The translations under genes were made by a program, and so were the position numbers. The notes below the pieces were generated by a model, which saw only the letters and a program-made list of their open reading frames with translations, was not told the DNA's origin and did no database searches. From Flaccisagitta enflata (Eukaryota), in assembly GCA_965153355.1 (NCBI GenBank), contig OZ231126.1:16492001-16556000 (forward strand): 64,000 bases of DNA, in the 5' to 3' direction. Positions 2,455-48,242 of this stretch are shown here, piece after piece. The first letter of the stretch is position 1. Every line of letters starts with the position of its first letter.

Positions 2455-2534
<80 letters not shown>

Positions 2535-2630
2535 TGAAAGATTTATTTAGGATTTTAAAAAAATATATAAAATATCAACCAACTTGATTGTCTGGTCAAA
2601 AGACCTTTTGCAAATGGACACGCCCAAACA
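1151..2630. mobile_element. Degenerate non-autonomous TIR element (approximate bounds)
   Basis: Diverged inverted ends (ggatgtgtcaaaatgcataaggttttttgaccaga ... tctggtcaaaagaccttttgcaaatggacacgccc), related to the TIRs at 12400/13092. Confidence 0.45.
2458..2531. repeat. (TA)n microsatellite
   Basis: Direct observation. Confidence 0.95.
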
Positions 2631-2717
2631 ACATAGTAAAGTAATAACTGAATATGGGATGGCATGTTTTTTTTTCAATCGCGGACTTCTTTGGTTGAAG
2701 AGTCAGTAGTCGCCGCG

Positions 2718-2851
2718 TCAACTTTCAATCACGGGTTCGGGGTCGATGTTTTGATAAGGGCCTCTGCTTCTGCCTACGCCAGAAAGGCCTGAGGTGGCGT
2801 GAGCCAGACCTGCCGACATGCCCTCAGGAATAGGTAAGCCGTACTCTCCTC
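2718..2851 (-). CDS. AGTRAP: Type-1 angiotensin II receptor-associated protein, last coding exon
   Basis: Acceptor cttcag, reads GGEYGLPIPEGMSAGLAHATSGLSGVGRSRGPYQNIDPEPVIES* (TGA 2718-2720). In phase with the previous exon; the ERGG...YQxID pattern matches AGTRAP. Confidence 0.85.
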
Positions 2852-2961
2852 CTGAAGAGTTTAAGCCCATGAATTTCGATTGAGCAGTGACATAATCAAC
2901 AAGGGATATTTATCCATTACTACGCTGTCGTTGGGCACTTAATGCATGAACATATGTTTAC

Positions 2962-3063
2962 CTCTTTCTTGCAAGATTCGGTAAATAAGAAAGGCACTGA
3001 ATGGTTTGACGAGCAAGTTCAAAATACACATTCCACCGGCGAACTGATGAGTAGCACTCCCAT
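2962..3063 (-). CDS. AGTRAP: AGTRAP internal exon (third hydrophobic segment)
   Basis: ag/gt bounded; NGSATHQFAGGMCILNLLVKPFSAFLIYRILQER resembles the recalled AGTRAP segment RFGVGMAILSLLLKPLSCCFVYHMYRER. Confidence 0.9.
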
Positions 3064-3195
3064 CTTGATAAATATAATTGGAGAAAGAAAGAAAGATTAG
3101 AGTAATATCTAAAATTGATCGGTATCCTAGCCATACTTGGGAATAATGGATATCCCATTCGAGAAGCAAGAAATGTATGTGGGTTGATCACTTAC

Positions 3196-3328
3196 TTGTC
3201 GGGAATGACACGGAAAGGACAATGATGTCCAGGATGAGGCTTAATATATTGGTCGTCAACATCATTTCGATGGGAAGTGGATTTTCACTCTGGAGCAATC
3301 CCCAAAGGCCAAGCGCGAGATAGAAAAT
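3196..3328 (-). CDS. AGTRAP: AGTRAP internal exon; upstream exon(s) not located
   Basis: tttccag acceptor and gtaagt donor; IFYLALGLWGLLQSENPLPIEMMLTTNILSLILDIIVLSVSFPT resembles LALGVWAV...FLDIVHISIFYP. Confidence 0.9.
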
Positions 3329-3603
3329 CTGGAAACGAAATAAAAACACTCCTTGAAAGATAGCCATGTAAAAAATGCGGGCTTATGAGACAATGTTCAG
3401 GCAATTAAAACAAAACAGTAGATGGTTGATTACAAAGGCAGCTATTGCCGACTGGTCCACTGGAAAAAGCCGTAAACCTGGGATTTTGTTTATTTATTCA
3501 TTGTTAAGTTATTATTGTTTTAAACATGTTTGTCTATCCGTTGGTCCATCAGTTAATCACATGCAAATGTGCATTTTAGGCCCTGCAGCTTTATTTGTCT
3601 GTG

Positions 3604-3665
<62 letters not shown>

Positions 3666-3807
3666 CGCGCGCTTGGAGCCCAAGGCGCCATACACCCTCT
3701 CTTACCTATAAATAATAATAGTATAACCTCATATTAATTTATTCTTTTTTTTACTTCGGGCAATAAAACAAGCAAAAACCCTCTTAAATACAAGCTGCTT
3801 CACTGCA

Positions 3808-3966
3808 TTTTTAGTTGCAGACACTCAACTCTATAAGAGGCTTTGTCCGTCCGTCCCTCGATCCGTCCGTCGATCCGTCCGTCAGCATGAGTCGAAAAAT
3901 GGGAAAACGCGCATTTCCGCCCCTGCCCACCAGTCCGCAACTGGTGGCCGTGTATCCGGCCTTGTT
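3808..3966 (+). mobile_element. DINE-1/HINE-like (Helentron-associated) non-autonomous element; example of a family with roughly 20 copies in the window (e.g. 4894, 12010, 12520, 18885, 21052, 30133, 30635, 31047, 33955, 35798, 47871, 52078, 52316, 57438, 57813, 59556, 60700, 62274)
   Basis: T-run, subterminal IR agttgc(g/a)gac partly folded with caact, (GTCC)n microsatellite, 3' subTIR gtccgcaact, terminal hairpin ggccgtgtatccggcc, ends in TT. This is the canonical HINE layout. Confidence 0.8.
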
Positions 3967-5283
3967 AAATAGCAAACTCGATGATTAACATCTGGTTGGT
4001 GCCATTTGAAAAAAAAGTTAGCTCTTCCTTAGCTGTGAATATACTTACTAAAATTGCTCCAAATCAAAAAATTAAAAATTTTATTTTTCCCCGATATTCC
4101 AAAAAGTCGAATTACCACCCAGCCTTCTTATCGCTTGTCGACGCGATACTGTCGATAAATGCTGCAATCATCAAAGTACGAATAGGACGATACCTGGACA
4201 AAAACGAAACAGTTGGGCGCCCAAGTTCCAAGCGTGGCCAAAGCCGTCAAGGTAAAATGGACGAAGATGACGCATTTTAATGTTGTCAATGGCGCCTGCA
4301 TCTTGATTCTTGGGCTTTAATACACGAAAGGATTGCTTGTTGTTTGCCAATTGATGATTCTTAACTCCTAAGTTCAAACATGTGTTTGCTTTAGCCCGAA
4401 ATTGTTCGATTGAGGCCAACGGAACCAGCAGACTTCTTAGGAGCTGAGTCAAGTCATTTTCTCTCCCCAATCATGAAAGACAGCAAAAAGCTCGGTAAGA
4501 GTCGCTAAATAAGCTTTCTCGAGCAAGAGCAAGAGGAAAACGGTTACTCCAGTATCAGTATCGGAGTTGAGGGCTGCGATTTGCAGTATTTACAAGTGTT
4601 CTCTTTAAATGTCCTTGGAAGAGAGGAACAGTGGAGAATGGTTAAACAGAAAGCTGAATAAATGTAGATATCAACTTAGCTCCCTGTGAGGATGGACAGA
4701 TGAAAAAAAACTATGTTTCACCCTGGTTAATTCAGAAGGAAAATTTACAATCATTGCATCTGCGTGACACTGTTACTTCTGAAAATTCTGCACCATAGAA
4801 AAACATGTACGAAACTGTCTCTAACAACATGGACTGAAACATTTACCAAAATAAGTATCTACGTTTATGACTATCAATTAATAAATCAAAATATTTTTAG
4901 TTGCGGACACGCAACTCTATACGAGGCTTTGTCCGTCCGTCGGTCCGATGGTCCGTTGGTCCGTCCGTGAGCACAAGTTAAAAATTGGGAAAACGCGTTT
5001 TCGATGCTTCTTGTGTACGTGGGTGAGTTGAGGGCGTTGTAGGTATGGATTGGGGTTGGATGCCCCTGCCCACCCGTCCGCAACGATATTGTGGCCCCGC
5101 GTTACTTGTTTCTGTAAATACTAATCGTCCTCAACAACTGAACAAACTGAGGCAGTGTTTCATTATCTGAAGGAGTTTGTATGAAAGTCACTTGGCTCTC
5201 GACCAATTCTCAACTTAAGCATTACAAAGAGATGGACGGACAGTGTCCTTACAGAGATACGTGAGCGTATATGGAAATAGCTA

Positions 5284-7375
5284 CAGTACCGGAATCAAAG
5301 AACTGGTGATAAGGAGGGAAGCCATATCTCTCCAATTACCAGGATATGAGATCTGAAATTTTTCTGTGGTGTGCACCTATAGTACCCCCACCCCCCATAA
5401 GGGTTTGGAGCTGTTCCAGGCAATTTTTGTTTTTGGTTGTCAAAAAAAATTTTTTTCTAAAAATTGCTATTGTAGGCTAAAATTTTTTTTTTAAAAATTG
5501 TCTTTTATGTTAGATACAGGTAATGCCAAGAGCTACAAATTTCATTTTTTGAAAAATATTTTCTGCCAATTTTTAAGGGAACAACACTAAAAAACAAAAA
5601 TTTCAAAAAAATGAAAAATAGCTATAATTTCCTTAATAATTGGCTTAACATGATAATTTTTGGCATGAAAGTAGTCCTGAAAACCTTCAATGTGTATGCA
5701 AAATTTTAAGTCATAGTTGAATTTTAAAGGAGTTATAGCATTTTGAAATTTTAATGATTTTTTGTAAAAACCATATTTTCCTATAAATTTTTTTTTGTCA
5801 ACCATTTTTCTTAAAATTTCATATACAAACAAAGTAACTGATGAATTTTTGCTTCAAAAAAAAATTTGGCCACTGTGACCCCTTAAAAAAATTTTTTTTC
5901 TAAAAAATTGCAAAAATGACCCATTTTTCAAAGTTGAATAAAAACTGTTCCTGTCATCCGATCATCTTCATTTTTGGTGGAGTTGTTACCTATTATCTAC
6001 CCTAACTTCACCTAAAATTTGAGCTCACTGCGCCAAACGGTTGCGGAGATATTGACGTTCAAAGTTACTTTGTCAGAGCAAAATCAGCAAAATTGGCATT
6101 TTGGCCATTTTTGAGCTTGCATAAAATTTCATTTTTTCTTCTAGAGACCTCCATTTTAGCTGAAGTTACTAAGGTTTAAGCATATATTCATATTCCAAAA
6201 TTTCACACTTGTCAGCCAAGCCATTTTAGGGATATGATGGTCCAAAGTTTTAAAAAACACCAATTTTTCAACAAAAATTACAATGAAAATTTTTCAAAAA
6301 AATTTTTAAAAAAAGGTTGTCCTCCGGGTTTTGGATCTGGGTGAATTAGATAATTCCCAATTGTGTTGAACCCCCCTTTGAAAACCATTTTGAGAAAAAT
6401 TTTTGCTTATTTTTTTCCTGAAGATTTGGTTGAAAAATTGGCATTTTTAAAAACTTTGGACCATCATATCCCTAAAACGGCTTGGCTGACAAGTGTGAAA
6501 TTTTGGAATATGAATATATGCTTAAACCTGAGTAACTTCAGCTAAAATGGAGGTCTCTGGAAGAAAAAATGAAATTTTATGCAAGCTCAAAAATGGCCAA
6601 AATGCCATTTTGCTGATTTTGCTGACAAAACTTTGAAAGTCAATATCTCAAACCGTTTGCAGTGAGCTCAAATTTTAGGTGAAGTTAGGGTAGATAATAG
6701 GTAACAACTCCACCAAAAATGAAGATGATCGGATGACAGGAACAGTTTTTATTCAACTTTGAAAAATGGGTCATTTTGCAATTTTGAGAAAAAATTTTTT
6801 AAGGGGTCAAGTGGCCAAATTTTTTTGGCAAAAATTCATCAGTTACTTTTTGTATATGAAATTTTAAGAAAAATGGTTGACAAAAAATTTTATAGGAAAA
6901 AATGGTTTTTACAAAAATCATTAAAATTTCAAAATGCTATAACTCCTTTAAAATTCAACTATGACTGTTGAAATTTTGCATACACATTGAAGGTTTCAGG
7001 ACTACTTTCATGCCAAAAATTATCATGTTAAGCCAATTATTTTATTTTTTTTTTCATTTTTTGTTTTTTTAGTGTCGTTCCCTTAAAAATTGGCGGAAAA
7101 TATTTTTTAAAAAATGAAATTTGTAGCTCTTGGCATTACCTATATCTAACATAAAAGACAATTTTTGAAATAAATTTTTTAGCCTACAATAGCAATTTTT
7201 AGAAAAAAAAAATTTTTGACAACCAAAAACAAAAATTGCCCGGAACAGCTCCAAACCCTTATGGGGGGTCGGGGTACTATAGATGCACACCACAGAAAAA
7301 TTTCAGATCTCATATCCTTGTAATTGGAGAGATATGGCTTCCCTCCTTATCACCAGTTCTTTGATTCCGGTACTG
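5284..7375. mobile_element. Tc1/mariner-type non-autonomous foldback element with ~1 kb TIRs
   Basis: TA|cagtaccggaatcaaagaactggtgataagg ... ccttatcaccagttctttgattccggtactg|TA; the arms are inverted copies up to a ~130 bp spacer near 6290-6420; no transposase. Confidence 0.9.
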
Positions 7376-7635
7376 TATGCTTGGACTTTTGTTTTTCAAA
7401 AGTTTCCATTAAAAGATTGAAGCGAACTCTCAAGGGAAGCTGAGACATTTTGAACAGAAGAACATCGTTCGAAGATGGTTGCGCCCAAGGATTTTCAAGC
7501 CGGGACGCCGCTCTCAACTCAAGACCAAAAAAAAAACTGGTAATGTTGATTGGCTTTTGCAATTTCAACTGTTACTGATTTTGTTTGCCATGCTCTTCTC
7601 TCTTTTTACAGAAAAAAAAACTCAAGACCCAGCAT

Positions 7636-9653
7636 TAGGGCCAACGGTTTTTGCATCAAATCAATTGAACACCCCAGCCTGCATTTTTTTAAAACAGACT
7701 ATGTCTATACTGTTGAAAACTACTCGCTATATGACTTTTCTCCGTGATTTAGAGGTGCCAGATTTGAGATTTTGATCATATCTTGATGGTGGTTTTGGTA
7801 AAAATGTCAAATTTAGGTCATTTTGGCCGCCAAATTGGGCCACTTAGCCTTAGAAATCAAACCTAAAATCCATGAGATTATAAAACTAGAGCTCAAGATC
7901 TCACTAGTGGTGCAATTCGCATGTTTCTATCATTTTTCGTTTAGATTTGAGAGCATTTCAAAGACGAAAGGGTTTGAAGGGAAAATGGCAGCTTCAATTT
8001 CAGTGGCAATTTTGACATTTTTCACAAATTTCAATATTTTGCGGCTTTGGATGGACCAATCTGCATAAAATTGGTGATCAAATTGAAGAGTTTTTCCTGT
8101 TCTAGCTGATGGTAAAAAATTTTTTGATCGATATTCCCCCCAAAAAATTTTAGAGACTGTAGAAGCAGGTGCAAAAAAATCGATTTTTTTGCAAATTGGT
8201 CAATTTTGGATGAAAAATTAGGCCACTTCCAATTCATAAAAAGACTTAAAATCCATGAGCAAAATGAAGTACTGCTCAGGAGCTAACCAGTGGTGCAATC
8301 GGCGTGTCAGTATGTTTTTGCATTTATATTTTAAAGAACTACAAAGATAAAAAAATACCCAAAAATTGTTATTTTGACATACCCTTAGATCTTTGAAGTT
8401 CTATAAAACCTAAATGAAAAAACATACTGACACGTCGATTGTATAGAAACCTGACAAACAGACAAACAAACCCAAAACAGGGCAAGGCAACGGTGAAAAT
8501 GTCCAGGGCAGTAATGCTGTCTTCGTCTCTGAGGATACGGGTATCTCCAAGGTCTGCCAGTGGGCAGGGACGTCCTCTGCAACCCAAATGGCGAAGAGGT
8601 GGGAAGGTCACCCACAAACAACAACCTCCCAAGCAAAAGCTGTATAATATTTGTAGTCTGAATCTCTTGAGGCAGTTTTGTATCTTTCTCTTTGGGCCTC
8701 TTTTAGGCAAAATATCTCCACTGATCTGGGCAGGAAAAATGGCATAAAAATCATGATGAAAACTTGAGGTGTTTATTGTAGCAGGGCAGCAACAAGACTG
8801 AATAAGAATTGACAATGCTCAAAAGTAAGGGATTGTAGGGGGCAAATGTTGGGGAAGAGGAAGAGGATCAGTAGCGCCACCTGTCGGGATAAAAAGGTAA
8901 TCAAATAGAGGGCGCAATCGTAGGTTGGGTAAAAGAGCAAAAAAACAAGATGGAGGATACGGGCATTTAGTCTGTCGGGTTCAACAATTGCACCACTGGT
9001 TAGTTCCTGAGCAGTACTTTATTTTGCTCATGGATTTTAAGTCTTTTTATAAATTGGAAGTGGCCTAATTTTTCATCCAAAATTGACCAATTTGCAAAAA
9101 AAAAATCGACTTTTTTGCACCTGCTTCTACAGTCTCTAAACATTTTCGAGGGGAATATCGATCAAAATTTTTTTTACCATCAGCTAGATCAGGAAAAACT
9201 CTTCGATTTGATCACCAATTTTATGCAGATTGGTCCATCCAAAGCCGCGAAATATTGAAATTTGTTAAAAATGTCAAAATTGCCACTGAAATTGAAGCTG
9301 CAATTTTCCCTTCAAACCCTTTCATCTTTGAAATGCTCTCAAATCTAAACGAAAAATGATAGAAACATGCGGATTGCACCACTAGTGAGATCTTGAGCTC
9401 TAGTTTTATAATCTCATGGATTTTAGGTTTGATTTCTAAGGCTAAGTGGCCGAATTAGGCAGCCAAAATGACCTAAATTTGACATTTTTACCACAACCAC
9501 CATCAAGTTATTAGCAAAATATCAAATCTGGCACCTCTAAATCACGGAGAAAAGTCATATGGCAAGTAGTTTTCAACAGTATAGACATAGTCTGTTTAAA
9601 AAAGCTGCAGGCTGGGGTGTTCAATTGATTTGATGCAAAAAACGTTGGCCCTA
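7636..9653. mobile_element. hAT-type non-autonomous element with ~665 bp TIRs
   Basis: Termini tagggccaacg...cgttggcccta; perfect 8-bp TSD cccagcat (7628-7635, 9654-9661); unique centre about 8300-8985. Confidence 0.9.
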
Positions 9654-14503: not shown

Positions 14504-14766
14504 TCTTCGAGCTCTCCGACTGATCCGGGACGACACCTCTCTCGAAGGACTGAAAACATGGCGAAGACCGATGCCAAGCAGAAAAAGCAGACGGAGCAAC
14601 AATGACTGAGTCTAGCTATGGCAGGGGAGGAAGTGATCTAATGTCGTTTGGTTAAAGCTTCCGATTACACATGTATGTTAAACCCATAGCTGCATCGTCC
14701 ATTTGATGGATACGCTAACATCGGTTTTACCGGAAGTTGTTACTCCGATGTCTCCTCGACGATAAT
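14360..14766 (+). promoter_or_regulatory. Probable gcl promoter/5' leader
   Basis: Paired CCAAT/ATTGG, (CT)n tract, YY1-like aacatggcg (~14555) and ETS-like ccggaagt (14730) just upstream of the ATG in CpG-rich sequence. Motif-level evidence only. Confidence 0.4.
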
Positions 14767-15348
14767 ATGGGTAACTACCTCCGCGCCGCTCCCCCTCCGG
14801 AAGTTCCACGACCCGGCCACGTCATCGGTCCGGAAGCCGCCGGTGGATCTCGCCGTCCCTCGCTCAACTCGGCTCTAGACGAAATCGATCTTTCCACGTC
14901 TCATCGGACTCCTAGGAAGCGCAAGAAGGGCCATCACGCGTTTGACGTGTCCTTCGAGGATGGCGCCGATTCGAAAATGAACACGCCCACGCGGAAGAAA
15001 TTGAAAAATACATCTCGATACATTTACGAGACTTTATTTCAAAATGGACAAGACAGCGACGTCACCATCAAAGCTCTAGGAAACACTTGGCGGTTGCATA
15101 AAGTATATCTCTGCCAATCGCCGTATTTTAACTCGATGTTTAGCGGTAATTGGGCGGAAACGAATCGTAGAGAAATCGACATCAGCGTCCCGGACCCTAA
15201 CGTGACGCGTGAGGCTTTAGAAGTGGCTTTTGGGTCGTTATATCGCGATGAAGTTTCCATTCGGCCCATCGAAGCGGAGAGTCTTGTCGCCGCCGCGTCG
15301 TTGCTGCAGCTTGATACGCTCATACAACACTGCGAAGACGTTATGAAG
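14767..15348 (+). CDS. gcl: Germ cell-less (BTB/BACK Cullin-3 adaptor), exon 1
   Basis: MGNY start (myristoylation-type), basic NLS, TPTRKKLKNTSRYIYETLFQNGQDSDVTIKALGNTWRLHKVYLCQSPYFNSMFSGNW closely matches recalled GMCL1; gt donor at 15349. Confidence 0.93.
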
Positions 15349-15514
15349 GTGTGTTTGTGTGTGCAGCGTGACTGCTTTCTGGTGCATGGTGGAACAGTAG
15401 AAAACGATCGGAAAGGGAAGTAAGGAAAGCCGGAACTTTGTCACGTAGTTTTACAATCATTATCATTCATTCTTACATTCATTTATTCATTCTTTCATTT
15501 TCTCATCTTCTTAG

Positions 15515-16995: not shown

Positions 16996-17028
16996 NNNNN
17001 NNNNNNNNNNNNNNNNNNNNNNNNNNNN
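16996..17028. other. Assembly gap (33 N)
   Basis: Run of N. Confidence 1.
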
Positions 17029-34500: not shown

Positions 34501-37500
34501 GTTAGGTGGTAGCTTCTAGTTTAGTTATAATAAATAGTAATAAAAAAACACAAAACACGGATCGTGAACTCGGAAATTTAACAGCAAGATCTAAGGGGAA
34601 ACAACGGATTAAGAATGGATCACAGCACTCAGTCAAATCAAAACGCGACTTAAAATTGAAGTGCGCAGGGTTACACAATGGGCATCTAACTGATACAAAG
34701 ATTCATCTAAGACGTGAAAAAAAGAATGAGCAGATACTCCTACAATGTTTATCATTTACTCAAGGACGATTTTTAAAACATGGAACAAACTTACGAAGGA
34801 CTTAGGGGTAAACTACGAGAATCTGGTTACTGAATTAATCGTAAGAACGTGATGAATTACTTCTGAATTGAATGGGAAAACAGTTATTCATTTTATGAAT
34901 TCTATGAATCTAATGAATCTTTACCTTGGGACAGACATGTTGGAGTCTAAAATGAGCCTTCATTATTCACCTAAGTCAATAAATCAAAGATGTACGATTA
35001 GATGAATAACAAAAGTTAAATTCCAACATTGTAACACAGCCAAACCCATCATTCATGACGGACATTTAGATTAAACGACTAAACAAATCACGGGGAAAAA
35101 AATCATGAATGATTAAACAGCAACATTGTTTTTTTTAGTCCCACAAAATTAACCTGATTGACCCTAAGTAGAAGGTTCTCGATTGGTTCTGGTAATATCA
35201 GCATCACCTAAATCAAGCCAGCATCAGCCCATAAATGTTTACTATATATAACATCTTTTATTCGTCATGAATGACAGACCACACGACATCATGCCTATAA
35301 ACTACGTAAAGAAAATAAAGAGGGGGAAAAAACCGAATTAGCATTTCAAAGTAGGATTGCCTAATGTTGGAAGTTGTCTTGTGTCAATGTTTCACCCACT
35401 TATTCAGCACAGGCCTGTATAAAGTTAAGTATTTCCCCCCCCCCCGGGGGGGAAATAAAATCAAAAGGTTTGGAGGCTAGAAAAGAAGAAAAAAGAAATT
35501 TTTTTGAAGATTCAACATTTTTGATAGTTCCAAACAGTAGTATCTGATTACTACAACACATTTAACACTATCTAGACCTATAATATATTGTTTTATCGCT
35601 TTGTGGGGAAGAAAATCATTGATTTTGTTAGGCGACGCGAGATGTCGCAGGGAAGAAAATCAAAGGCCCCCCCCCCAAATAAAATCAAGAGCCGCTCAAC
35701 TTTATACGCCCCTGATTCAGCATCATTTTTTTTCGCAATAGTGTATTTCCCGCTAAAAGAACTGAAGTAACGACAGACCAATGGACCGACAGCCTAAATT
35801 TTTAGTTGTATGCTGCATGACTCTACACCCCACTTTGTCGGTATGTTGATCCATCCGTCTGTCCGTCTCACTTAAGTAACTTTTTTTGTGTTTTCGCGAT
35901 CTTGGGCTTTATGCTCCTGCCCAAATGATGAAGTCACCTTAAATATGCCCCCTGCCCACCCGCACGCGACTGGGGTAGCTGTGTATCCGACCTTGTTTGG
36001 CTCAGAGCCAAAAATTTTTGTAACAATGGACAGACGACCAATAGACGTGGCCGCATGGACTAAACAAAAAAAAATCAAATGGTCATTACGTGCAAATGAA
36101 TCACAGGAAAAGGTTGAAATTTGGGACAGAGACCATTGATGTTATGTTCTATCACTGTACCATGTTTCATTCCAGTCCAACTTCAGGAACCCCTTAGTAT
36201 CGATGGACTAACAGATGGACTGTCGCGAGCATGCAATTGAACAAGATCAGATGGTCATTACGCGCAAACGAATGAGAGGAAAATGGTAAGATTTTGTACA
36301 CAAACCCTTCCTGTCATGTTATATCACTGAACTAAGTTTCATTCCAATCCGATTTGATGAACCCCTTCAATCAACGGATGTACCAATGGACAGACACAGC
36401 CGCATGCGCGCGACTGAAAATGACCAAATGGTCACTACGTGCAAATACACGATTTTAGCTTTCTCACGCGGACATATGATTGAACAGTGCACAATAACAT
36501 AAACATCTTACGTGTGTGAGAGGAAAGAAGCATCACATAACAATGTTTACCGCCGTGCTTCACCCCTTATTTGCATTGAAATGTATAGGGAGGAGGGAGG
36601 GCAAGATAAGACTTCTTTCCTGATTGAGTCTTAGTATGCCAACAGAAACACATTGAACATATGTCCAAGTGGTAAAGGCGAAATCATGGTATAACACGGC
36701 TCCCAATACCCAGTCAGCGTCACTTATTTATTGTTGGTTAAAAAAGGGTAATAAAAAGTACCACTCGCTAAAACTGACCTACCGATAGACCAACGAACAA
36801 ATCATTCACGATCAACGTTCGGACAGTCATGGTCGTGTGTAAATGACTGAAACATAAGGATGAAATGATCATTTAGTAAATGGCAATGGGATACCCAAAA
36901 ATTCTACATCACTTTTACGGAAAATATTGCTGAAATAAGACTAATGATATATTTTTAAAAATGTTTATTGAATAAAATATTGACCGGGAACAATATTCAT
37001 ACAAACCAGACAATAATAACTAAACAGAAATTGGGTTGAAATCTTCGTTCATTTCTGCTTTCCTCCTTCAACCAAACTTGTCTTGCTCAGTAGTTTTCAT
37101 TTAAAAGTGCCATAGAAAGATGCGATGCGAACATAGGGTGCGCATCGGAGAAAATATTTTTGAAAAACAGTACTCGACAGAATTAAGTGTGCTCTTTCAC
37201 ATACGTGTGAATCGCGCGTATGGAAGAATTTTGAGACTCCTTTCCACTTGTTCAAAGTTGAAAGTTTTTTAAGCATTTTCTCGGGATTGCGTTTCGTTTT
37301 TTTCGATGTTGCTTGATCGCCTCAGGCGTGTTTTGACATTCATTGGCCAGTGTAAACATATATAAAGCTTTTGAAGGGGTTTTCACCATTTATCTTATGT
37401 CTATCAAACTCATTTCTTCACGCAAATTCGACATTTTTCATACGATGGATCTCAGCGATTTGAACATTAACGTGTCCGGTCTCTACATTTAGATCAAACG

Positions 37501-38692: not shown

Positions 38693-38725
38693 NNNNNNNN
38701 NNNNNNNNNNNNNNNNNNNNNNNNN
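38693..38725. other. Assembly gap (33 N)
   Basis: Run of N. Confidence 1.
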
Positions 38726-39552
38726 CGCTGTTCGACGTGCTAACAACTGGAGAGGAGGAAAAATGAAAGGAAAAGTGGGCGTTAATTGTGATCAACGAAC
38801 GCAAAAGCTAACATCAAGTCGAGAGAGGACGCAATAAAGGACAGAAACAGCACATGACAACATGTTCATCTTCTTCAGAGCCCATGCCACCCCTGATAAT
38901 ACCTGCCCCTGCCCCGGCCCATCCCGATGGGGTCATCATATCATCCTATAGTAAGCTGACCGGGCAAGCGATAAACCATACTAAAATCCGGCGATAAAAA
39001 TGCAAAAAACGCAAAAAACAAAAATAACAGACCGGAAAACAAGATAAAACAACGTTAACAACAAAAACGCGTCTGTCGGAAAGACTTACTTTGGAAGGCC
39101 CCGCTGATTGGTTTCAACCTAGATCTGTGATCATGGAATTAACGTTAATTGTCCGTTCATTGGTTTATCTGCAATAAAGATGAGATTATTAAGAGTGAAG
39201 TGAATTCAAGGGGCGCATTCAAACGATCATAAAAATCAATCAATCACTTTAAGAAGCGATGCCATAATTAAATAAAATCAATCAATCCAAAAAATTGGAT
39301 GATACGAAAGACGAGTTACGTATATTTGCCTACGTAGTAAAAACAAATGGCACAAAATCAAGGCGCAACCATATGGTTACCCATCTAGCGTTCAATATAA
39401 AAAATGGCAAGAAACAAAAGACACGGGCATCGAATAGTAGAGAAAGAGAAAAAAGCCAAAAGCACGCAAAAGAGACAGAAGGCACACACACCTAAGCGAC
39501 GGACAGACATACATTTCTAACACTTTCTATTAATCTATCTATCTATCTATTC

Positions 39553-39618
<66 letters not shown>

Positions 39619-39682
39619 TTATCTGTTTATCTATCTATCTATCTATATATCTATCTATCTACTTATCTATTAATCTATCTAT

Positions 39683-40293
39683 GTCAGGGTGCAATCGAAG
39701 ACAAAATTTGATTGGTCAACACATATTTTTAGCAATATTATAGATATTGTTAATTTAAATATTTTTATAATGAAATATAATCATTAGTTTGTGTTTAGAC
39801 TATTTTTGCATTTAAAAATTTTTTTGTGTCTAAAGTAAATGTGAAATGCAGGGATAAACGTCTGAAAAAAGAAAGTTTTTAAGGAAAATCTTATTTTACT
39901 ATCTGACATGTCATGGGTAAAATTATAACTTTGCATAGAGATTCAAAAATTGAGATTTTCAAAAATATGGCGTCGTTCTAAAGACTCCTAAGACGAGGGA
40001 CATGTGTTTAGAAATGCAAAATTTTGCATTCAGAAGCAGAATAAAAATTTTACCCAACAACTGTCTGAACTTTTCTTCTAATTTTTTGGGAGAATTTTTC
40101 TTGTTTTGTTGAATAACTTTTGTCTTTATGAACATACAATAGAAACTTTTTATATTGTAATCATTTTTTGATATTCTTAAAGAAATTAGGAATAAAAAAT
40201 TTTTTATTTTAAAACTTATTACCTACTAGGATAACTATATATAACAATTTATTGTGACTGAAAATCAATTTTTGTCTTCGTTTGCACCCTGAC
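39683..40293. mobile_element. MITE inserted in a (TCTA)n microsatellite
   Basis: TIRs gtcagggtgcaatcgaagacaaaa / ttttgtcttcgtttgcaccctgac, with TCTA repeats on both flanks. Confidence 0.75.
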
Positions 40294-40558
40294 CTATCTA
40301 TCTATCTAATAATCTATCTATTGATCTATCTTTCAATCTATCTATCTTTCTATCTTTCAATGCATGAACTGATCATTGCTGATGATTTTATCTCTGTGAC
40401 CTTCCTTTTTTAAGTTCTGAAGTTTCCTTTGTATCCATAGTCATGTATATTCATACAGTTCTACATAAGGAATAAAAAGTGAATGTGCTTCTAGGGTGGA
40501 TCAGTCATGCGGGGTACCCCTTGACTTATACGTAAACATGTTTGTTCATTCTTCACAG

Positions 40559-40736
40559 GCATCATCATCGCGACGATCCCGATCTGCTTGGGATGGATTT
40601 CCTTCGATCGGACGGAAGCCGTTTGCGCCATTGATTGGTCCATCCCGGACGCATTTTATTACGTCGTCGCCGCCAACATCACTTGCTTCATGATTCCAGG
40701 ATTCATCATCCTTGTTGTCTACGTCGTCATCAAGCG
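40559..40736 (+). CDS. Class A (rhodopsin-like) GPCR exon, TM4-ECL2-TM5
   Basis: cacag acceptor, gtaatc donor; IIIATIPICLGWISFDRTEAVCAIDWSIPDAFYYVVAANITCFMIPGFIILVVYVVIKR has the TM4 Pro-xxx-GW, the ECL2 Cys and the TM5 FxxP...Y motif. Confidence 0.88.
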
Positions 40737-40954
40737 GTAATCATGAAGTGGGATTTACTTGGCCATTGTCATTTCTATATAACTTATAAGGAGTGTCCAC
40801 CGTTAAATGTACCACATTGTAACGTAATTGCTCTCCAGTCTCTCTCTTTTTGTGTTATCTTTATCTGATTGTGTAATTACCTAAAAACTAAATCAGTAAA
40901 AGCATTTCTTTTATACGTGTTGTGAATGCGTTTTAAAATAACATGATATGACAG

Positions 40955-41062
40955 GACCCTGAAGCGCCAAGACGCGGAATTGAAAGAAATGTTTCGAGGC
41001 TCCTCGATTTCCGCCGAAACTCTCAAAGAACATCGCAAAAGTTCCACCCGAAAAGCCGTCAG
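40955..41062 (+). CDS. GPCR exon, intracellular loop 3
   Basis: ag/gt bounded, phase 2 on both sides; TLKRQDAELKEMFRGSSISAETLKEHRKSSTRKAVR. Confidence 0.85.
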
Positions 41063-41173
41063 GTGCGTCTCGTGTGATCGAGCCTTCAGTCTGGCTTCAA
41101 ATATATATACACAATTGGCCACAATATTTCGATTTTTCTGTCCATCTGAAAAGTCTTTTTCAATCTCAATGTC

Positions 41174-41771
41174 TTTAAAGTTTAGGCGTCTTAGGGTAAT
41201 GGTTGGTCTGTTAGTCGGCTGTTAGAACTAAGAATAGGCTAGAGCTAATTCTGAATAAGTAGAGACAACTGTAACACGTAATAGCTGCTGATAAAGGATG
41301 AACTAAGTATCTCAAGTTTTGAGTATCAAGAGGCTAAATATACAAAGCCCAGTTTCTTACGAATATATAGAATTTATTAAAGGATAAGAAGGAAGGTTGT
41401 GCGCAGAGAAAGGTTTGAATCAAGACTGAATAAGTGGAAAAGTTACTTTCTTACGATGCAGTTTTCACACACAAAGAGAATAACAGTATTCAGCTAAGAA
41501 CGTAATAGAATTACAGTATCCAATCAGAAAACAGAATGCAATAATATTGACCAATAGGCTTTCATGCCATTTCACTTTTTACCGGAACTAAATTGTAAAT
41601 TATAAGTTACAAAGTTCTCTTTCTCAAGAAATCATTGTTTTAGTTACAACGGAAAAGCTGGCGCCTTCTCTGTCTGGAAATTTATAGGATATTTGAGAGG
41701 ATAGAAAGAGATAGACAGAGACAGAAAGATAGAACAGAAAAATGGTCAAATTCATAATTCCATTTTTAATA
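41174..41771 (-). repeat. 3' LTR (minus orientation)
   Basis: Direct repeat of 45195-45792; preceded on the minus strand by the G-rich tract ggggttttggcgggcag; minus-strand TATAAA (~41680) and AATAAA (~41375). Confidence 0.9.
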
Positions 41772-42344
41772 CTGCCCGCCAAAACCCCACTTTGGGGTTT
41801 TCTCCATTTTGAAAGTTGTGAATTGTCCAAACTCTACAAGAAAGGATCTTGCTAGAAATTTTAGTTGGTTGTAGGGGGAAGGGGTCTCCTGTCTAGGATG
41901 CAGGACCTCCGCCCTGATCCCAGAGCCTGGGAGAATGAGTTTGGGAATTTTGTTGAAGGCAGAAATCATTTCTCATGGTTTGGATCACAATAGGTTTTGA
42001 AATTGTACATTTTTTGAAAAGAATTGGCTATGGCTGCTTCAAATTCAATATCAACACAATAGTTGGGAAAGGGATCTCCTGTCTAGGATGCAAGACCTCC
42101 GCCCTGATCCCAGAACCTGGGAGATAATGGGACAACAACATAGGGATCTCGCAAATGGCAGAACCCACAAAGTTCGCGAAATGGAAATCCATCAAAAAGA
42201 CCCTACCAAGGTCAAAAGGTAGAAGGTCAAAAGGGCAACCCCGCCCAAGCTGCAAATGGCGGCCAAAGGGAGGACACAAATGCCGGTGGGTCGGCTCAAG
42301 GCACTGTTGTTAACTCACTACATAGCACCACAAACCATGAAAAA

Positions 42345-45206
42345 ATGGCTGTGCTAAAAAATTTCAAGGCGGTTCCAAAAGAGAAACCGAATTCTACAGT
42401 GCGTTCTCTCATTGATGATGGATCTCAGCGAACGTGGATAAAAATGCATACAGCCAAATCTTTGAAACTTCCTGTCGTGCGTCGTGAATTGCTTGCCGTA
42501 GCAACTGCTTTTTCGAGCCAACCTAACACACCTAGACTTTATGACATTGTCAAAGTCAGCCTGAGAACCAAAGATAGTAGGTTCATGGAAATGGAGGCAG
42601 TGGTATCTCCTGATGACAAACTTGTATCTGACATGCCTGCGATACGTTTTGATCCAACAAAAGAGTACCCCCACTTGAAAGGAATCAAATTTGCCGATGA
42701 TTACCCTCGTGACACTACCGAGGTTGAACTTCTGATTGGTAATGACTACGCCAATCACATCCAAACAGGAAGAAGAATCATTGGGGGTATTGATGAGCCC
42801 TGCGCGCTGGAGACCCTGTTTGGTTGGATTTTATCAGGGAATATTTGCCATGAATCAGCAAATGTTATCTCCACAAATAATGTGCAGGTTACTCGGTTGG
42901 AAAATGTGCTCGAAAAATTCTGGGAGATCGAAGACATACCGAATCCTAATTCACGGATGAAAAATATCTTGGACGAAGAAGTCCATGAAAAATTCAAAAA
43001 GACCATCACCTATGATGAGTCAAAGCAGCAATACATGGTTGAGATACCATACAAAAGTGACGTGGAAGACTTGTCGGACAATTTGGCACCAACCAAAGCT
43101 CTTTACCAAAAGCAAATGAACATGCTGGAAAAAGATCCAGAGAAGATGAAAACGGTCCAGGATATATTTGATGGACAACTGGATCTAGGCGTTTTAGAAC
43201 TTGTTCCGGAGGAAGAAACACCAACTGAAAAGGTCCATTATCTTCCATGGCATCTTGTTCTTCGCCCCGGACATCCAACCACTCCTACCCGAATCGTTAA
43301 AAACGCCTCATACAAAGGTCGGAATGGGATTTCACTCAATAGTGCCCAACATGTGGGCCCCAATCTGTTACCAGACATTGTTGGTTCTATCTGTAGGTTT
43401 AGAACAGGCAGTGTAGCCTTTACCACAGATATTACAAAAATGTTTTGGCAAATCAAAATTCCATTGAAGCAACAAAATCTCCATCGCATCATCACACCTC
43501 GAGGAACTGCCAAACAGACGACTGTTATGTTCGGTGAAAGTTCATCACCATTTCTCTCAATGGCCACTTGCCAGCATCATGCAGAACGCGAGGACAGCAA
43601 GCAAAAATTTCCAAAAGCTTGTCAGCATGTGATGGATGACCTTTACATGGATGATATCCCTTCAACTGCAGATTCGGTGGGAGAAGCCGTGGATGCTTTA
43701 ACACAAATAAAGGGATTCTTCACCAGCATGCATATGAAAGTGCACAAGATCAACAGTAACAGGAAAGATCTTTTGGCACAAATTGATGGCACTGACGACA
43801 GAGAGGATGCAAATGTGCTTGGACTGAATTGGAACACAATCACTGATTCCCTCAATGTTCCCTCTAAGGAATGGGATTCTGTCCCATTAACAAAACGGGA
43901 ATTTCTTCAGGGGATCTCTGCATTTTGGGACCCCCTGGGCCAACGTGCCCCCCTGATTTGTTGGGGCAAAATGATCATGCAAAAGATTTGGCAGCATGGA
44001 TCAAACTGGGATGACCCACTCCCGGAAATTCTATGGCAGGAGATAGAATGTTTCAAAAAAGCGTGTCTGTTTGTTTTTGAAATCCCACGCTATTTCGGTG
44101 TGCCCATAGTCTTGCACATTTTTGTGGATGCCTCAGAAGGGGCGTACGCGGCTGTAGCCTATGTCATAACTGGAAAGGGCTCCTTCTTCCTCCTCTCAAA
44201 AACTAGGGTTAAACCCCTCAAAGTCGTTAGCCTTCCTTGTATGGAATTGTTGGGTGCCGTTCTTGGTACAAAACTTCTCAATTTCCTCAAAGCAGAGGTT
44301 TTCAAATCTCAAATTGAAACCTTCATGTGGTCTGACTCAACCATCACATTGGGATGGATTGAATCCTCATCTTCACGTTACAAACCCTTTGTCGGAAATC
44401 GCATTGCGGACATTCAACGCACTTCCGCCACCCACTCCGCTAAATGGATGTGGGTTCCTGGAGATCAAAACCCCGCAGATATCCCTTCGAGAGGGACTTG
44501 GCCACTTCATGAAAAACAGGCCAAACTCTGGGCACATGGGCCAGAGTTTTTACAGACGGGTGAATGGCCAACTCAACCGGAGGTGGAAAAACCAGATCTT
44601 GAAAAGCGTAAAATTGCGATAAACGTTGCTCAAGTCACGCCTCCCGTCATTCAACTAGAACGTTACAGCTCGTTTGAAAAAATGCTTCGCATCGTCACTA
44701 TGGTGTGGCGTTTTGGGTGCCCTTTGGCGGGGAGGGATGAGCCCCTTGCAAATCAGCGGAAAAGGGCACTCCAAAAAATCATCTCCATGGAACAAAAAAT
44801 TTTCTTTGCGGAAGAATATTCATGCCTTCAGAAAAATCAACCTATACCGCGAAATTCTCGGCTCATTCATTTCAATCCAGTTCTGGAGAATGGCATCATG
44901 AAGATGCAAGGGAGAGTAAGCAAAAATCTCATAATCCTCCCGGATAAATCTCATCTTACTCGACTGATAATCAGAGATGCACACATTTCTAACCTCCACG
45001 CAGGGCCAAACCAAACCCTAGCACACCTGCGTCAAAAATACTGGATTATAAAAGGCATGACTGCTGTAAAAGCGGAAACCAAATCCTGCATGAAGTGCAA
45101 GCGGATTAACAAACCTCTGTGCCAGCAGAAAATGGCAGATCTACCGGATTTTCGAAAAAATGCTTTGCCGCCCTTTGCCCACCCAGGGACGCCATTTAAA
45201 GTTTAG
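42345..45206 (+). CDS. Bel/Pao pol fragment: aspartic protease, RT, RNase H, integrase zinc finger; lacks gag and the integrase core (frame open from 42144)
   Basis: LIDDGSQRTWI, LLIGND, ETLFGWILSG, YLPWH, DITKMFWQI, FGESSSPF, YMDD, WDPLG, HIFVDAS, WSDS, NPADIPSRG, H-H-C-C; ends at MADLP...PPFAH. Confidence 0.92.
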   Translation: MAVLKNFKAVPKEKPNSTVRSLIDDGSQRTWIKMHTAKSLKLPVVRRELLAVATAFSSQPNTPRLYDIVKVSLRTKDSRFMEMEAVVSPDDKLVSDMPAIRFDPTKEYPHLKGIKFADDYPRDTTEVELLIGNDYANHIQTGRRIIGGIDEPCALETLFGWILSGNICHESANVISTNNVQVTRLENVLEKFWEIEDIPNPNSRMKNILDEEVHEKFKKTITYDESKQQYMVEIPYKSDVEDLSDNLAPTKALYQKQMNMLEKDPEKMKTVQDIFDGQLDLGVLELVPEEETPTEKVHYLPWHLVLRPGHPTTPTRIVKNASYKGRNGISLNSAQHVGPNLLPDIVGSICRFRTGSVAFTTDITKMFWQIKIPLKQQNLHRIITPRGTAKQTTVMFGESSSPFLSMATCQHHAEREDSKQKFPKACQHVMDDLYMDDIPSTADSVGEAVDALTQIKGFFTSMHMKVHKINSNRKDLLAQIDGTDDREDANVLGLNWNTITDSLNVPSKEWDSVPLTKREFLQGISAFWDPLGQRAPLICWGKMIMQKIWQHGSNWDDPLPEILWQEIECFKKACLFVFEIPRYFGVPIVLHIFVDASEGAYAAVAYVITGKGSFFLLSKTRVKPLKVVSLPCMELLGAVLGTKLLNFLKAEVFKSQIETFMWSDSTITLGWIESSSSRYKPFVGNRIADIQRTSATHSAKWMWVPGDQNPADIPSRGTWPLHEKQAKLWAHGPEFLQTGEWPTQPEVEKPDLEKRKIAINVAQVTPPVIQLERYSSFEKMLRIVTMVWRFGCPLAGRDEPLANQRKRALQKIISMEQKIFFAEEYSCLQKNQPIPRNSRLIHFNPVLENGIMKMQGRVSKNLIILPDKSHLTRLIIRDAHISNLHAGPNQTLAHLRQKYWIIKGMTAVKAETKSCMKCKRINKPLCQQKMADLPDFRKNALPPFAHPGTPFKV
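45177..45194 (-). promoter_or_regulatory. Primer-binding site complementary to the tRNA-Asn 3' end
   Basis: Minus strand TGGCGTCCCTGGGTGGGC; plus strand GCCCACCCAGGGACGCCA equals the recalled last 18 nt, including CCA, of metazoan tRNA-Asn(GTT). Confidence 0.85.
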
Positions 45207-45792
45207 GCGTCTTAGGGTAATGGTTGGTCTGTTAGTCGGCTGTTAGAACTAAGAATAGGCTAGAGCTAATTCTGAATAAGTAGAGACAACTGTAACACGT
45301 AATAGCTGCTGATAAAGGATGAACTAAGTATCTCAAGTTTTGAGTATCAAGAGGCTAAATATACAAAGCCCAGTTTCTTACGAATATATAGAATTTATTA
45401 AAGGATGAGAAGGAAGGTTGTGCGCAGAGAAAGGTTTGAATCAAGACTGAATAAGTGGAAAAGTTACTTTCTTACGATGCAGTTTTCACACACAAAGAGA
45501 ATAACAGTATTCAGCTAAGAACGTAATAGAATTACAGTATCCAATCAGAAAACAGAATGCAATAATATTGACCAATAGGCTTTCATGCCATTTCACTTTT
45601 TACCGGAACTAAATTGTAAATTATAAGTTACAAAGTTCTCTTTCTCAAGAAATCATTGTTTTAGTTACAACGGAAAAGCTGGCGCCTTCTCTGTCTGGAA
45701 ATTTATAGGATATTTGAGAGGATAGAAAGAGATAGACAGAGACAGAAAGATAGAACAGAAAAATGGTCAAATTCATAATTCCATTTTTAATA
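45195..45792 (-). repeat. 5' LTR (minus orientation)
   Basis: Direct repeat of 41174-41771 (one substitution noticed by eye); directly followed on the minus strand by the PBS. Confidence 0.9.
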
Positions 45793-45943
45793 ATGTCAGA
45801 TCATAAACTTCCATTTTTGTAATACTTGAAAATTATGAATAGAAAAACATCAAACGCTGAATTCATGTAAATTGAATATCAATTGTTTATAAAGATTTCT
45901 GTCGCCACTTTTATGACCCAATTTGGGTGTCTATTTTGCACAG

Positions 45944-46013
45944 GTCCCTGGCGGTCGTCGTGATCATGTTTTTTCTGTGCATGACGCCTTTCTGCATCAC
46001 AAAACTAGTCAAG
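45944..46013 (+). CDS. GPCR exon, TM6; TM1-3 and TM7 exons not located
   Basis: ttttgcacag acceptor, gtaata donor; SLAVVVIMFFLCMTPFCITKLVK (FxxCxxP motif), in phase with the previous exon. Confidence 0.85.
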
Positions 46014-48242
46014 GTAATAAGAATTTGATACTTAATTTCAACGACATTTTTATTGGATTCAGTTTTATCAACAACATTGACACTCAATGAAACGCAACAA
46101 AGCCATAGGGCATGGGGCCATTTTAGGTGCAGTTACACTTCGCTGTAACAAACCCCAGGCGTGATTTTTCTTCTTTCTTTTCGGGTAACAGATATTTTTC
46201 CTTTGAATATTCTGACTTGTCTATCATATTCTTGTCAAAAAGGTTAGTTACCCTGAGGGGTAAAATATGAATTTTCATTTATTTCAATCATTTTTGCTGC
46301 AGGATATTCAACGTGGAAAGACACCAAGCTGAGGTCATTATTTGGGAAAGAAAATGAGGCGAAAAAAAATTGGTCCACGTATAATGGACAGTATATAACG
46401 GTTCTTAAAACATGCTAGTCGCGCACAGACAAAATCAGCCCAATCAAATATTCATTTGCCCTCCCTTTTGTGACAAAATGACCATGGTCCCTCCATATGT
46501 CGAAAGCGAAATGAGGAGCTAATTTGCATGTTGCCGTGGCAAAACTGATTTCAGTATTTATAACAATGTAACGTCGTCCCAGATTCATCAACACTCAACT
46601 CTGATGTGTGTTGCATTTCTAAATTACCGAATAAAAATCCTTAATTTCTAGGATCGTTTTGATTGCATCACAATAAAGAATTATGATAAAGGTTGTTATG
46701 AGTCTCAATTCTATTCAAATTTACAAAATCATAAATTACCAAAAATTGGTGTTTTCTAGACGCGTGGAAGCTGTTCACACACCTTCCGGACTACCTTCTG
46801 AGGGCATTTTTAGATGGCGGTGGATCTATCCCGCCCAGAAACTACTGGCGCTGGGTAATGATTTTGGGGGAGCTACAATAGTCCAAGAAGCAGAAGGCTG
46901 AAGGCAATCAAGCCTTGGAGTGATTAGCTGCAGAAGTTGAGTGAGAGCAGGACAGCGGCCCCAAAGGGCCGATGTCCTGTTGGACACCGGGGTGAATTTC
47001 CAGACGTCCTGAAAAGGCACATTTGAGGCTTTTGGGGCTACTTTCCTTGTTATTCATTGAGAACATTGAATTTTTTTTCCATTCCATTGTAAATTTTCCA
47101 TATTATTCAATCTGAATTAGTATGGCCCGTAAAGCTATGTTATGACCCATCTCGATATGTTTACAGCACTAGAGGGTGTTTAGAAGATATTTGTAAAGTT
47201 TCAACTCATTTAGATGAATTTTAGCAAATTTACTTTTGATTTTAAAAATACTACTTTTTTGTCTTTTCGACGTCATTTCGAGCCTCCGATGACACAGATT
47301 TCCCGCTAGATCGAACCTTAACGAGAGCATGCACATGCAAATTTGGTAATTTTTTTGGTTATTGAATAGTACTTTGTGTGGCATTAGTAAGCTAGTCACT
47401 ATGTATTGCACGCTCCTTTTTTACAGTCGCAGACTTGACTCTATGATAGGCATTGTCCATCTGCCCATTTGGTCCATCAGTCTGTCTGTGATACTCAAGT
47501 GATAGTATCAAAATACGCAATTTCCCTGCCTGCCCCCTGTCTGCGACGCTATTGAGACCCAACGCTAATTATCTTTTCCTTCTTCTCCATCTTCTTGTTC
47601 TCCATCTTTTTCTTCTCCATCCTCTTCTTCTTCTTCACCTTCTTCTCCTTTCTTCTTCTTCTTCTTCTTCTTCTTCTTCTTCTTCTTCTTCTTCTTCTTC
47701 TTCTTCTTCTTCTTCTCCTTCTTCTTATTCTTCTTCTTCTTCAACATCTTCAATATGACGCGCAGCAATGACAATGATACATGGTACATGCTCTTTCGTA
47801 CATTGGAATCATGGCCCTTTCATCGACCTTCTTCTTCTTCCTCTTCTTCCTCTTCTTCTACTTCTTCTTCTTTTTAGTCGCGTGCTACGCGACTCTACAC
47901 CCCGCTTTGTCGGTCCGTCCGTCCGTCCTTCCGTCCGTCGGTCCTTCCGTCACACTTTACTTTTCGGCCTTTATGGGCTTTTTGGCTATACCGCTCCTGC
48001 TCAAATGCTCCACTGACCTTGAATATGACCCCTGCCCACCCGCACGTGACTGGGGTAGCCGTGTATCCGGCCTTGTTTCTTCTCCAGTGTGTTGGTTGGG
48101 CGGTCTCGGCCGCGGAAGGTGTGGCGACAGGTCATGGTAGAATACCATGAGATGTCTCCCCAATCATGCCGTGTATGGGGAGGTCATGTTAAGAATTGCT
48201 TTGATAAAGTTGTCGATATTCTCTGAATGAATCCTTTTTTTA

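Follow-up and report, generated by a model that had tools for sequence, protein, structure and literature searches.

The 64-kb window analysed here (64,000 nucleotides of contig OZ231126.1 of Flaccisagitta enflata, GCA_965153355.1, positions 16,492,001 to 16,556,000) contains, at positions 41174-45792, a long terminal repeat (LTR) retrotransposon whose pol region lies antisense to its own LTRs and primer-binding site (PBS). The element is best read as a single, very recent and defective Bel/Pao copy, the interior of which was rearranged during reverse transcription, a reading to which we give a probability of roughly 0.55. The arrangement had been pointed out in an earlier reading made from the sequence alone (below, the sequence-only reading), and the present analysis followed up its claims. 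Published papers are cited here for portions of their texts.

The element was bounded by two LTRs of 598 bp each, identical at 597 of 598 positions, the sole mismatch being at 41386 (A; G in the right copy). Both LTRs abutted the same 5-bp target-site duplication (TSD), ATGTC, which bears out the claim that near-identical LTRs are combined with an intact TSD. In the sense defined by the PBS, the LTR contained TATAAA at LTR position 86 and AATAAA at position 394; neither motif was present on the plus strand of the LTR, in agreement with their earlier placement on the minus strand. The LTR termini in element sense were TATTAAA...CTTTAAA (41174-41180, 41765-41771; the right LTR alike), that is, TA...AA instead of the TG...CA of the control Bel/Pao elements described below. 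Immediately outside the right LTR, a stretch of 31 nt (45794-45824) resembled the last 28 nt of the LTR (45765-45792), with 25 of 31 columns identical and a local score of 28 (shuffle mean 20.1; the score was equalled in 3 of 300 shuffles), and the right TSD copy fell inside this similarity. The element may have an old piece of a related LTR as its neighbour; alternatively, the likeness between target and LTR end may be fortuitous.

The minus strand carried, at 45194..45177 and with no gap to the right LTR, a PBS of 18 nt, TGGCGTCCCTGGGTGGGC. This was the single match in the window even when 3 mismatches were allowed, and none of 100 shuffles produced a match. The identical 18-mer has been given as the asparagine-tRNA PBS of prosimian foamy virus (PMC4261875), so that the minus-strand tRNA-Asn PBS proposed earlier beside the right LTR was confirmed at 18 of 18 positions against a published one, and the complement of TGGCGTCCCTGGGTGGGC is contained in human AsnGTT 3' tRNA fragments (PMC11476591, table). 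No tRNA genes were found in the window. The assignment to the tRNA-Asn of the host presumes the conservation of tRNA-Asn among animals. At the opposite end, the G-rich tract that had been reported on the minus strand at the left LTR was recovered as GGGGTTTTGGCGGGCAG, a polypurine tract (PPT)-like sequence with 11 purines among 17 positions and a TTTT interruption; it is G-rich and lacks a clean polypurine run, as do some of the control Bel/Pao elements. Part of this tract was included in a small hairpin (41781-41801), the predicted fold of which was not significant (z -1.84; 11 of 200 shuffles folded equally well).

Between these minus-strand signals, the plus strand carried an open frame of 1020 codons (42144-45206), as the sequence-only reading had stated, and its assignment to Bel/Pao was upheld by Pfam (Peptidase_A17, E 1.4e-32). 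The domains followed one another in the Bel/Pao order, namely Asp_protease_2, RVT_1, Peptidase_A17, and Integrase_H2C2, and the final 8 codons and the stop of the frame consisted of PBS and LTR sequence. The two longest minus-strand open reading frames (ORFs) within the cargo yielded no Pfam family. A search of a protein collection identified 204 homologues at E <=0.001 among 6370 candidates, and all those listed carried PF05380. The best full-length homologues had 1708 and 1707 residues and approximately 64% identity; for a partial homologue of 864 residues the identity was 89%. Public proteins, the much closer ones retrieved with the two ends of the frame as queries, were 100% (P0126; 95 of 95 residues), 99% (P0145), 95% (P0143), and 89% (P0008) identical to the cargo. 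Taken together with the 1020 open codons, these identities indicate that a working element was the very recent source of the cargo. A very recent origin of the whole copy follows likewise from the one difference between LTRs of 598 bp, the open antisense frame, and the 95-100% identity to three public fragments.

Neither the integrase core (rve, PF00665) nor gag (DUF1759, PF03564) was detected by Pfam in the cargo. When four relatives were compared with the whole window by tblastn, each gave one plus-strand match, corresponding in the 1708-residue P0002 to residues 408-1429; its residues 1-407 (gag) and 1430-1708 had no counterpart anywhere in the window. The losses, approximately 400 residues of gag at the N-terminus and 280 of integrase at the C-terminus, are thus genuine and no mere displacement, and the sequence-only reading's assertion that gag and the integrase core are lacking holds across the window. 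Since these parts are missing and the remaining pol is antisense to its own promoter, the copy cannot be autonomous. Intact, near-identical partner elements appear to exist, judging from protein records such as P0126, which has a full integrase core and belongs to a cluster of 34 member sequences.

Metagenome contigs supplied 80 distant Bel/Pao loci (identity 26-31%; among at least 565 pattern matches), on which the usual orientation of these parts was assessed. A direct repeat pair was present in 34 of the 80 loci and lay inside the contig in 19, of which 17 were kept; L030 and L047 were left out because the repeat pair did not flank the pol match. In 15 of the 17 controls (13 by script, L007 and L059 by eye), the pol strand bore a PBS beginning with TGG at the margin of the 5' LTR, and none was found in L041 and L072. 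The antisense arrangement, in which pol occupies the plus strand and the PBS the minus strand, is therefore abnormal for Bel/Pao. TG...CA termini and a 5-bp TSD were verified in 7 of the 17 controls, most of the others beginning with TGT; the TSD measured 5 bp in all seven in which it was readable, and the length of the ATGTC duplication fits Bel/Pao in this respect. The PBS TGGCGTCCCTGGGTGGGC was present in none of the 80 control loci, and a tRNA scan of 30 of them returned one tRNA-like call, which was not Asn. In L047, a second LTR pair (1505-8397) was observed upstream of the matched pol, with a TGGTCCTTCGAACC-type PBS complement before its right LTR, which marks it as a neighbouring element in opposite orientation.

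The right junction carried a recognisable signature. P0126 and the window were identical through ...ALPPFAH, after which P0126 reads TGLDYAGP... through a complete integrase core, whereas the window reads PGTPFKV and a stop. The continuation H-T-G-L-D-Y was found in all six relatives that span the site (P0002, P0003, P0004, P0008, P0125, and P0126), and the chimeric tail of the window in none of them. The His codon occupies 45180-45182 and the complement of the PBS begins at 45177, the bases GCC CAC being common to both. Since the His codon ends 6 nt into the PBS complement, the 18-nt PBS contains the right junction and the overlap with pol is up to 6 nt (GCCCAC). The breakpoint is located at a landmark of strand transfer and shows overlap between donor and acceptor. 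Thr-Gly in the relatives corresponds to ACN GGN, as against CCA GGG in the PBS complement, so that the overlap possibly extends to 11 of 12 positions. By our own arithmetic, an overlap of at least 4 bases would be expected at a blunt random joint in about 1 case in 200. The full 18-nt PBS was retained at the junction, and no leader sequence followed it.

At the left junction, P0143 (95% identical) and P0142 read ...NSQ[TS]H-GSRKWQ, preceded upstream by gag, and the window has a stop right before GSRKWQ. The 360-bp segment between this point and the left LTR may be the normal 3' untranslated end of the retrotransposon family. A candidate gag remnant in it, a minus-strand tblastn match with E 0.002 obtained without composition correction, was rejected in favour of a profile hidden Markov model of 12 gag sequences, the best E of which over the six frames of the segment was 0.96; the other tblastn matches to the segment were weak and at noise level. 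Nucleotide similarity between the segment and the start of the cargo was not significant in either inverted or direct orientation (28 of 500 and 133 of 500 shuffles, respectively, reached the score). The segment also held two copies of a 60-nt direct repeat, at all four differences of which copy 1 had G and copy 2 had A on the plus strand, too few to interpret; the predicted folds of these repeats and of the PPT-side hairpin were not significant (z -1.84 to +0.26). The coordinates of all features are collected in Table 1.

Table 1. Features of the antisense-pol element and gaps in the window (positions are those of the window).
Feature	Position	Strand	Basis or remark
Left TSD copy, ATGTC	41169..41173		Abuts left LTR
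Left LTR, 598 bp; 3' LTR in PBS-defined sense	41174..41771	-	597/598 identical to right LTR
G-rich PPT-like tract, GGGGTTTTGGCGGGCAG	41772..41788	-	Minus-strand reading; abuts 3' (left) LTR
360-bp segment between left LTR and pol cargo	41772..42131		No gag homology
60-nt direct repeat, copy 1	41875..41934		56/60 identical to copy 2
60-nt direct repeat, copy 2	42065..42124		56/60 identical to copy 1
Left breakpoint zone	42132..42143		Parental gag-pol homology begins; relatives run upstream into gag
Open Bel/Pao pol cargo, 1020 codons, antisense to LTR and PBS	42144..45206	+	ORF, Pfam, tblastn
Protease (Asp_protease_2)	about 42396-42617	+	Pfam
Reverse transcriptase (RVT_1)	about 43401-43748	+	Pfam
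Peptidase_A17, reverse transcriptase-RNase H region	about 43890-44339	+	Pfam, E 1.4e-32
Integrase zinc finger (Integrase_H2C2)	about 44949-45113	+	Pfam
Right junction overlap, GCCCAC	45177..45182		Ala-His codons kept in relatives; first 6 nt of PBS complement
PBS, 18 nt, complementary to 3' end of tRNA-Asn(GTT)-CCA	45177..45194	-	No spacer to right LTR
Right LTR, 598 bp; 5' LTR in PBS-defined sense	45195..45792	-	597/598 identical to left LTR
AATAAA of right LTR	45399..45394	-	Motif search of LTR
TATAAA of right LTR	45707..45702	-	Motif search of LTR
Right TSD copy, ATGTC	45793..45797		Abuts right LTR
N runs	16996-17028, 38693-38725		Outside element

Because the PBS is the site of plus-strand transfer and the right junction lies within it, the element is read as one aberrant product of reverse transcription. 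We infer the steps from the anatomy, which alone is directly observed. The product would combine an inverting template switch with two deletions and would thereafter have been integrated normally. In the proposed course, a DNA strand with the 18-nt PBS at its end would have annealed by the terminal 6 nt (possibly 11 of 12) to a complementary stretch of the integrase-coding sense strand; the natural candidate for this donor would be plus-strand strong-stop DNA, the 3' end of which is exactly the PBS. Extension along this template of wrong polarity would have copied the integrase zinc finger, RNase H, reverse transcriptase, and protease backwards. The order seen in element sense, LTR and PBS followed by the complement of ...NALPPFAH, is what would be expected from extension of the PBS 3' end after such pairing. 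A mirror version, in which a nascent pol-sense strand jumps onto the PBS, would be equally possible. A second switch near the gag/protease linker would then have returned synthesis to the normal template approximately 360 nt upstream of the 3' LTR, giving a product with two complete LTRs, the PBS, and the PPT-like tract and without the leader, gag, and the integrase core. Completion would have been ordinary, and integrase supplied in trans would have inserted the product and made the 5-bp duplication.

Elements of this course have precedents in the published portions consulted: second-strand transfer is directed at the PBS and defective proviruses arise from aberrant strand transfers (PMC12657518), sequence inversions are a recognised class of defective provirus of HIV-1, the type 1 human immunodeficiency virus (PMC9238239), and complex LTR retrotransposons with TSDs arise by abnormal template switching (PMC1950507; preprint 10.1101/452573). 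The sequence-only reading had offered a one-off inversion as the alternative to its main proposal, a mobilisable defective-interfering or silencer element, which gained no support in this analysis. The PBS-internal junction with its short pol overlap points to a one-off event, which we place during reverse transcription.

Several points weigh against this interpretation. Two template switches are needed, and only one of the two junctions carries a recognisable signature; the left one is located to no better than about 12 nt and adjoins a 360-bp segment of unassigned source. Even at the right junction, as judged from the codons of relatives, the overlap is certain for only 4 of the 6 bases (the first and second positions of the Ala-His codons), and its possible extension to 11 of 12 would depend on the unseen Thr-Gly codons of the parent. 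The derivation of LTR and cargo from the same family is an assumption. The TA...AA termini differ from the TG...CA of the controls and are not a textbook integrase substrate. Moreover, a family of such elements in the genome would change the reading.

Among the other explanations, a chromosomal rearrangement after insertion is the one we hold least unlikely. A normal, minus-oriented element would have had its interior inverted later by break repair or by replication-based template switching, with loss of gag and leader and of the integrase core and C-terminus accompanying the inversion. An internal inversion leaves the LTRs and the TSD untouched, so these do not count against it, and the short junction overlaps, which are typical of replication- or end-joining-based rearrangements, fit as well. 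Such a history would nonetheless have to accommodate an inversion and two deletions within the short time set by one LTR mismatch and 1020 stop-free codons, and to let a breakpoint, out of approximately 5 kb of positions, coincide fortuitously and precisely with the PBS's inner edge; in addition, no inverted repeats able to drive an inversion (0 pairs of at least 40 nt) were found in 39000-48000. It is harder still to see the element as belonging to a non-autonomous lineage that propagates in this very form, with LTR-driven transcription, packaging, and reverse transcription in trans, and that dampens its autonomous partner through the antisense-pol cassette; this was the main proposal of the sequence-only reading. 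The cis elements known to be required for reverse transcription and integration (an LTR with TATAAA followed by AATAAA, the PBS, the G-rich tract, and the TSD) are all present and mutually well oriented, and near-identical intact partners such as P0126 appear to be available. Retroviral packaging signals, however, tend to sit in the leader and the gag 5' region, and here both are entirely gone, while an antisense cargo that is under no selection and still stop-free would leave room for no lineage but a very young one. The window held neither a further copy of the LTR nor one of either junction, and no relative was found in viral contigs (queried with the protein, with the LTR-PBS string, and with the family alignment) or in prokaryote genome contigs (searched with the protein); these negatives are weak, the host genome being outside the search, as is the lack of the chimeric tail in the six relatives across the right junction.

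A heterologous chimera, with a pol cargo from a family other than the one that supplied the LTR, the PBS, and the 360-bp segment, seems improbable to a slightly greater degree. Template switching between co-packaged RNAs might have produced it, as might nested insertion and deletion, and it would account for LTR termini unlike those of the control Bel/Pao elements as well as for a 360-bp segment without detectable relation to the gag-pol family. The 5-bp TSD nevertheless fits Bel/Pao, an overlap of the PBS with integrase-coding sequence would be no less necessary, and the window holds no other sign of a second family. We consider an artefact of assembly, through a chimeric or mis-joined contig, very improbable: repeats are the usual sites of misjoins and two runs of 33 N occur elsewhere in the window, but the element itself contains no N, and a misjoin is not expected to yield a matching TSD, an LTR-abutting PBS, and an overlap junction together.

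Under the preferred interpretation, a reverse-transcription error, the locus would be a clean natural record of an inverting event in a little-studied retrotransposon family, with both breakpoints mapped and one of them within the PBS, and it predicts complementarity between the PBS and the integrase-coding region in the parental element. The element type, a defective rearranged LTR element, is already known. Among the papers brought up by literature searches on LTR elements with inverted interiors or antisense pol, none was found to describe an antisense pol between correctly oriented LTR, PBS, and PPT. The anatomy of minus-strand LTR signals and plus-strand pol implies, as proposed from the sequence alone, that about 3 kb of antisense pol would be included in any LTR-driven RNA. 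If the right LTR is active, an RNA of approximately 4.3 kb would be made, 3 kb of it antisense to the pol of a seemingly still active family, and this RNA could conceivably feed the production of small interfering RNA (siRNA) or PIWI-interacting RNA (piRNA).

It is a good deal more doubtful that the locus is a member or founder of a self-spreading, promoter-matched antisense suppressor mobilised in trans. Such a suppressor, driven by the LTR promoter that its autonomous partner also uses, would make 3-kb antisense pol RNA precisely when its own family is active and would seed siRNA or piRNA against that family, having been born of one strand-transfer error at a PBS-complementary site in the integrase gene. 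Recurrence of the junctions, or the making of antisense or small RNAs, would show a transposon family generating its own promoter-matched antisense suppressor, which would bear on the way in which genomes come by their first triggers for silencing active elements.

Elsewhere in the window, a BTB/POZ open frame was found on the plus strand at 14719-15423 (Pfam E 1.4e-16), the only clear host-gene signal among the nine ORFs tested outside the element (13 ORFs of at least 150 amino acids were present in the window). An Rfam search over the whole window returned no family. A 34-nt inverted repeat (39680-39713 and 40263-40296) had arms that were 91% complementary and 549 nt apart, each beside a CTAT microsatellite, and is possibly a small foldback or an element of the miniature inverted-repeat transposable element (MITE) kind. 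In addition, a dispersed repeat of approximately 100 nt, seen as similar ORF fragments, was present at about 35960-36080 and 47980-48100 with a core roughly 90% identical; microsatellites of the CGTC/GGAC type adjoined its second copy. A long TCT/TTC microsatellite array (GAA on the minus strand) extended over 47557-47890.

Non-autonomous LTR elements of the large retrotransposon derivative (LARD) and terminal-repeat retrotransposon in miniature (TRIM) types form multi-copy families with non-coding interiors and need a partner in trans. The present element resembles them in retaining LTRs, a PBS, and a PPT-like tract without the full coding set, and differs in being known from one copy, the interior of which is a fresh and open pol in antisense. 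In maize, Mu killer is an inverted partial duplicate of MuDR that silences its family through a hairpin RNA. Both are rearranged derivatives of an active transposon with RNA complementary to the partner, such RNA being here only a would-be product; Mu killer derives from a DNA transposon and its silencing by a hairpin is demonstrated, whereas the antisense RNA predicted here from the sequence would be LTR-driven and no hairpin.

Plant LTR retrotransposons with antisense ORFs (PMC7264820) likewise carry coding sequence antisense to an LTR-driven transcript. Their antisense ORFs, as described in the portion consulted, are extra genes beside a sense gag-pol, whereas in the present element pol itself is antisense and no sense genes are left. 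Complex LTR retrotransposons (Sabot and Schulman 2007, PMC1950507; rice, 10.1101/452573) are, like it, abnormal products of reverse transcription that were integrated with a TSD. They are three-LTR fusions of two co-oriented elements, in contrast to the two LTRs and inverted interior found here, and the words 'invert' and 'antisense' occur in neither text as far as these were covered. For defective HIV-1 proviruses (PMC9238239, PMC12657518), a PBS-internal junction to antisense pol is not described in the portions of the two texts covered. They share with the present element an LTR-flanked, integrated copy with a deleted and inverted interior, an error ascribed to reverse transcription, and the PBS as the landmark of second-strand transfer; they differ in that they belong to an exogenous retrovirus, whereas here the copy is that of a germline Bel/Pao retrotransposon in an animal genome.

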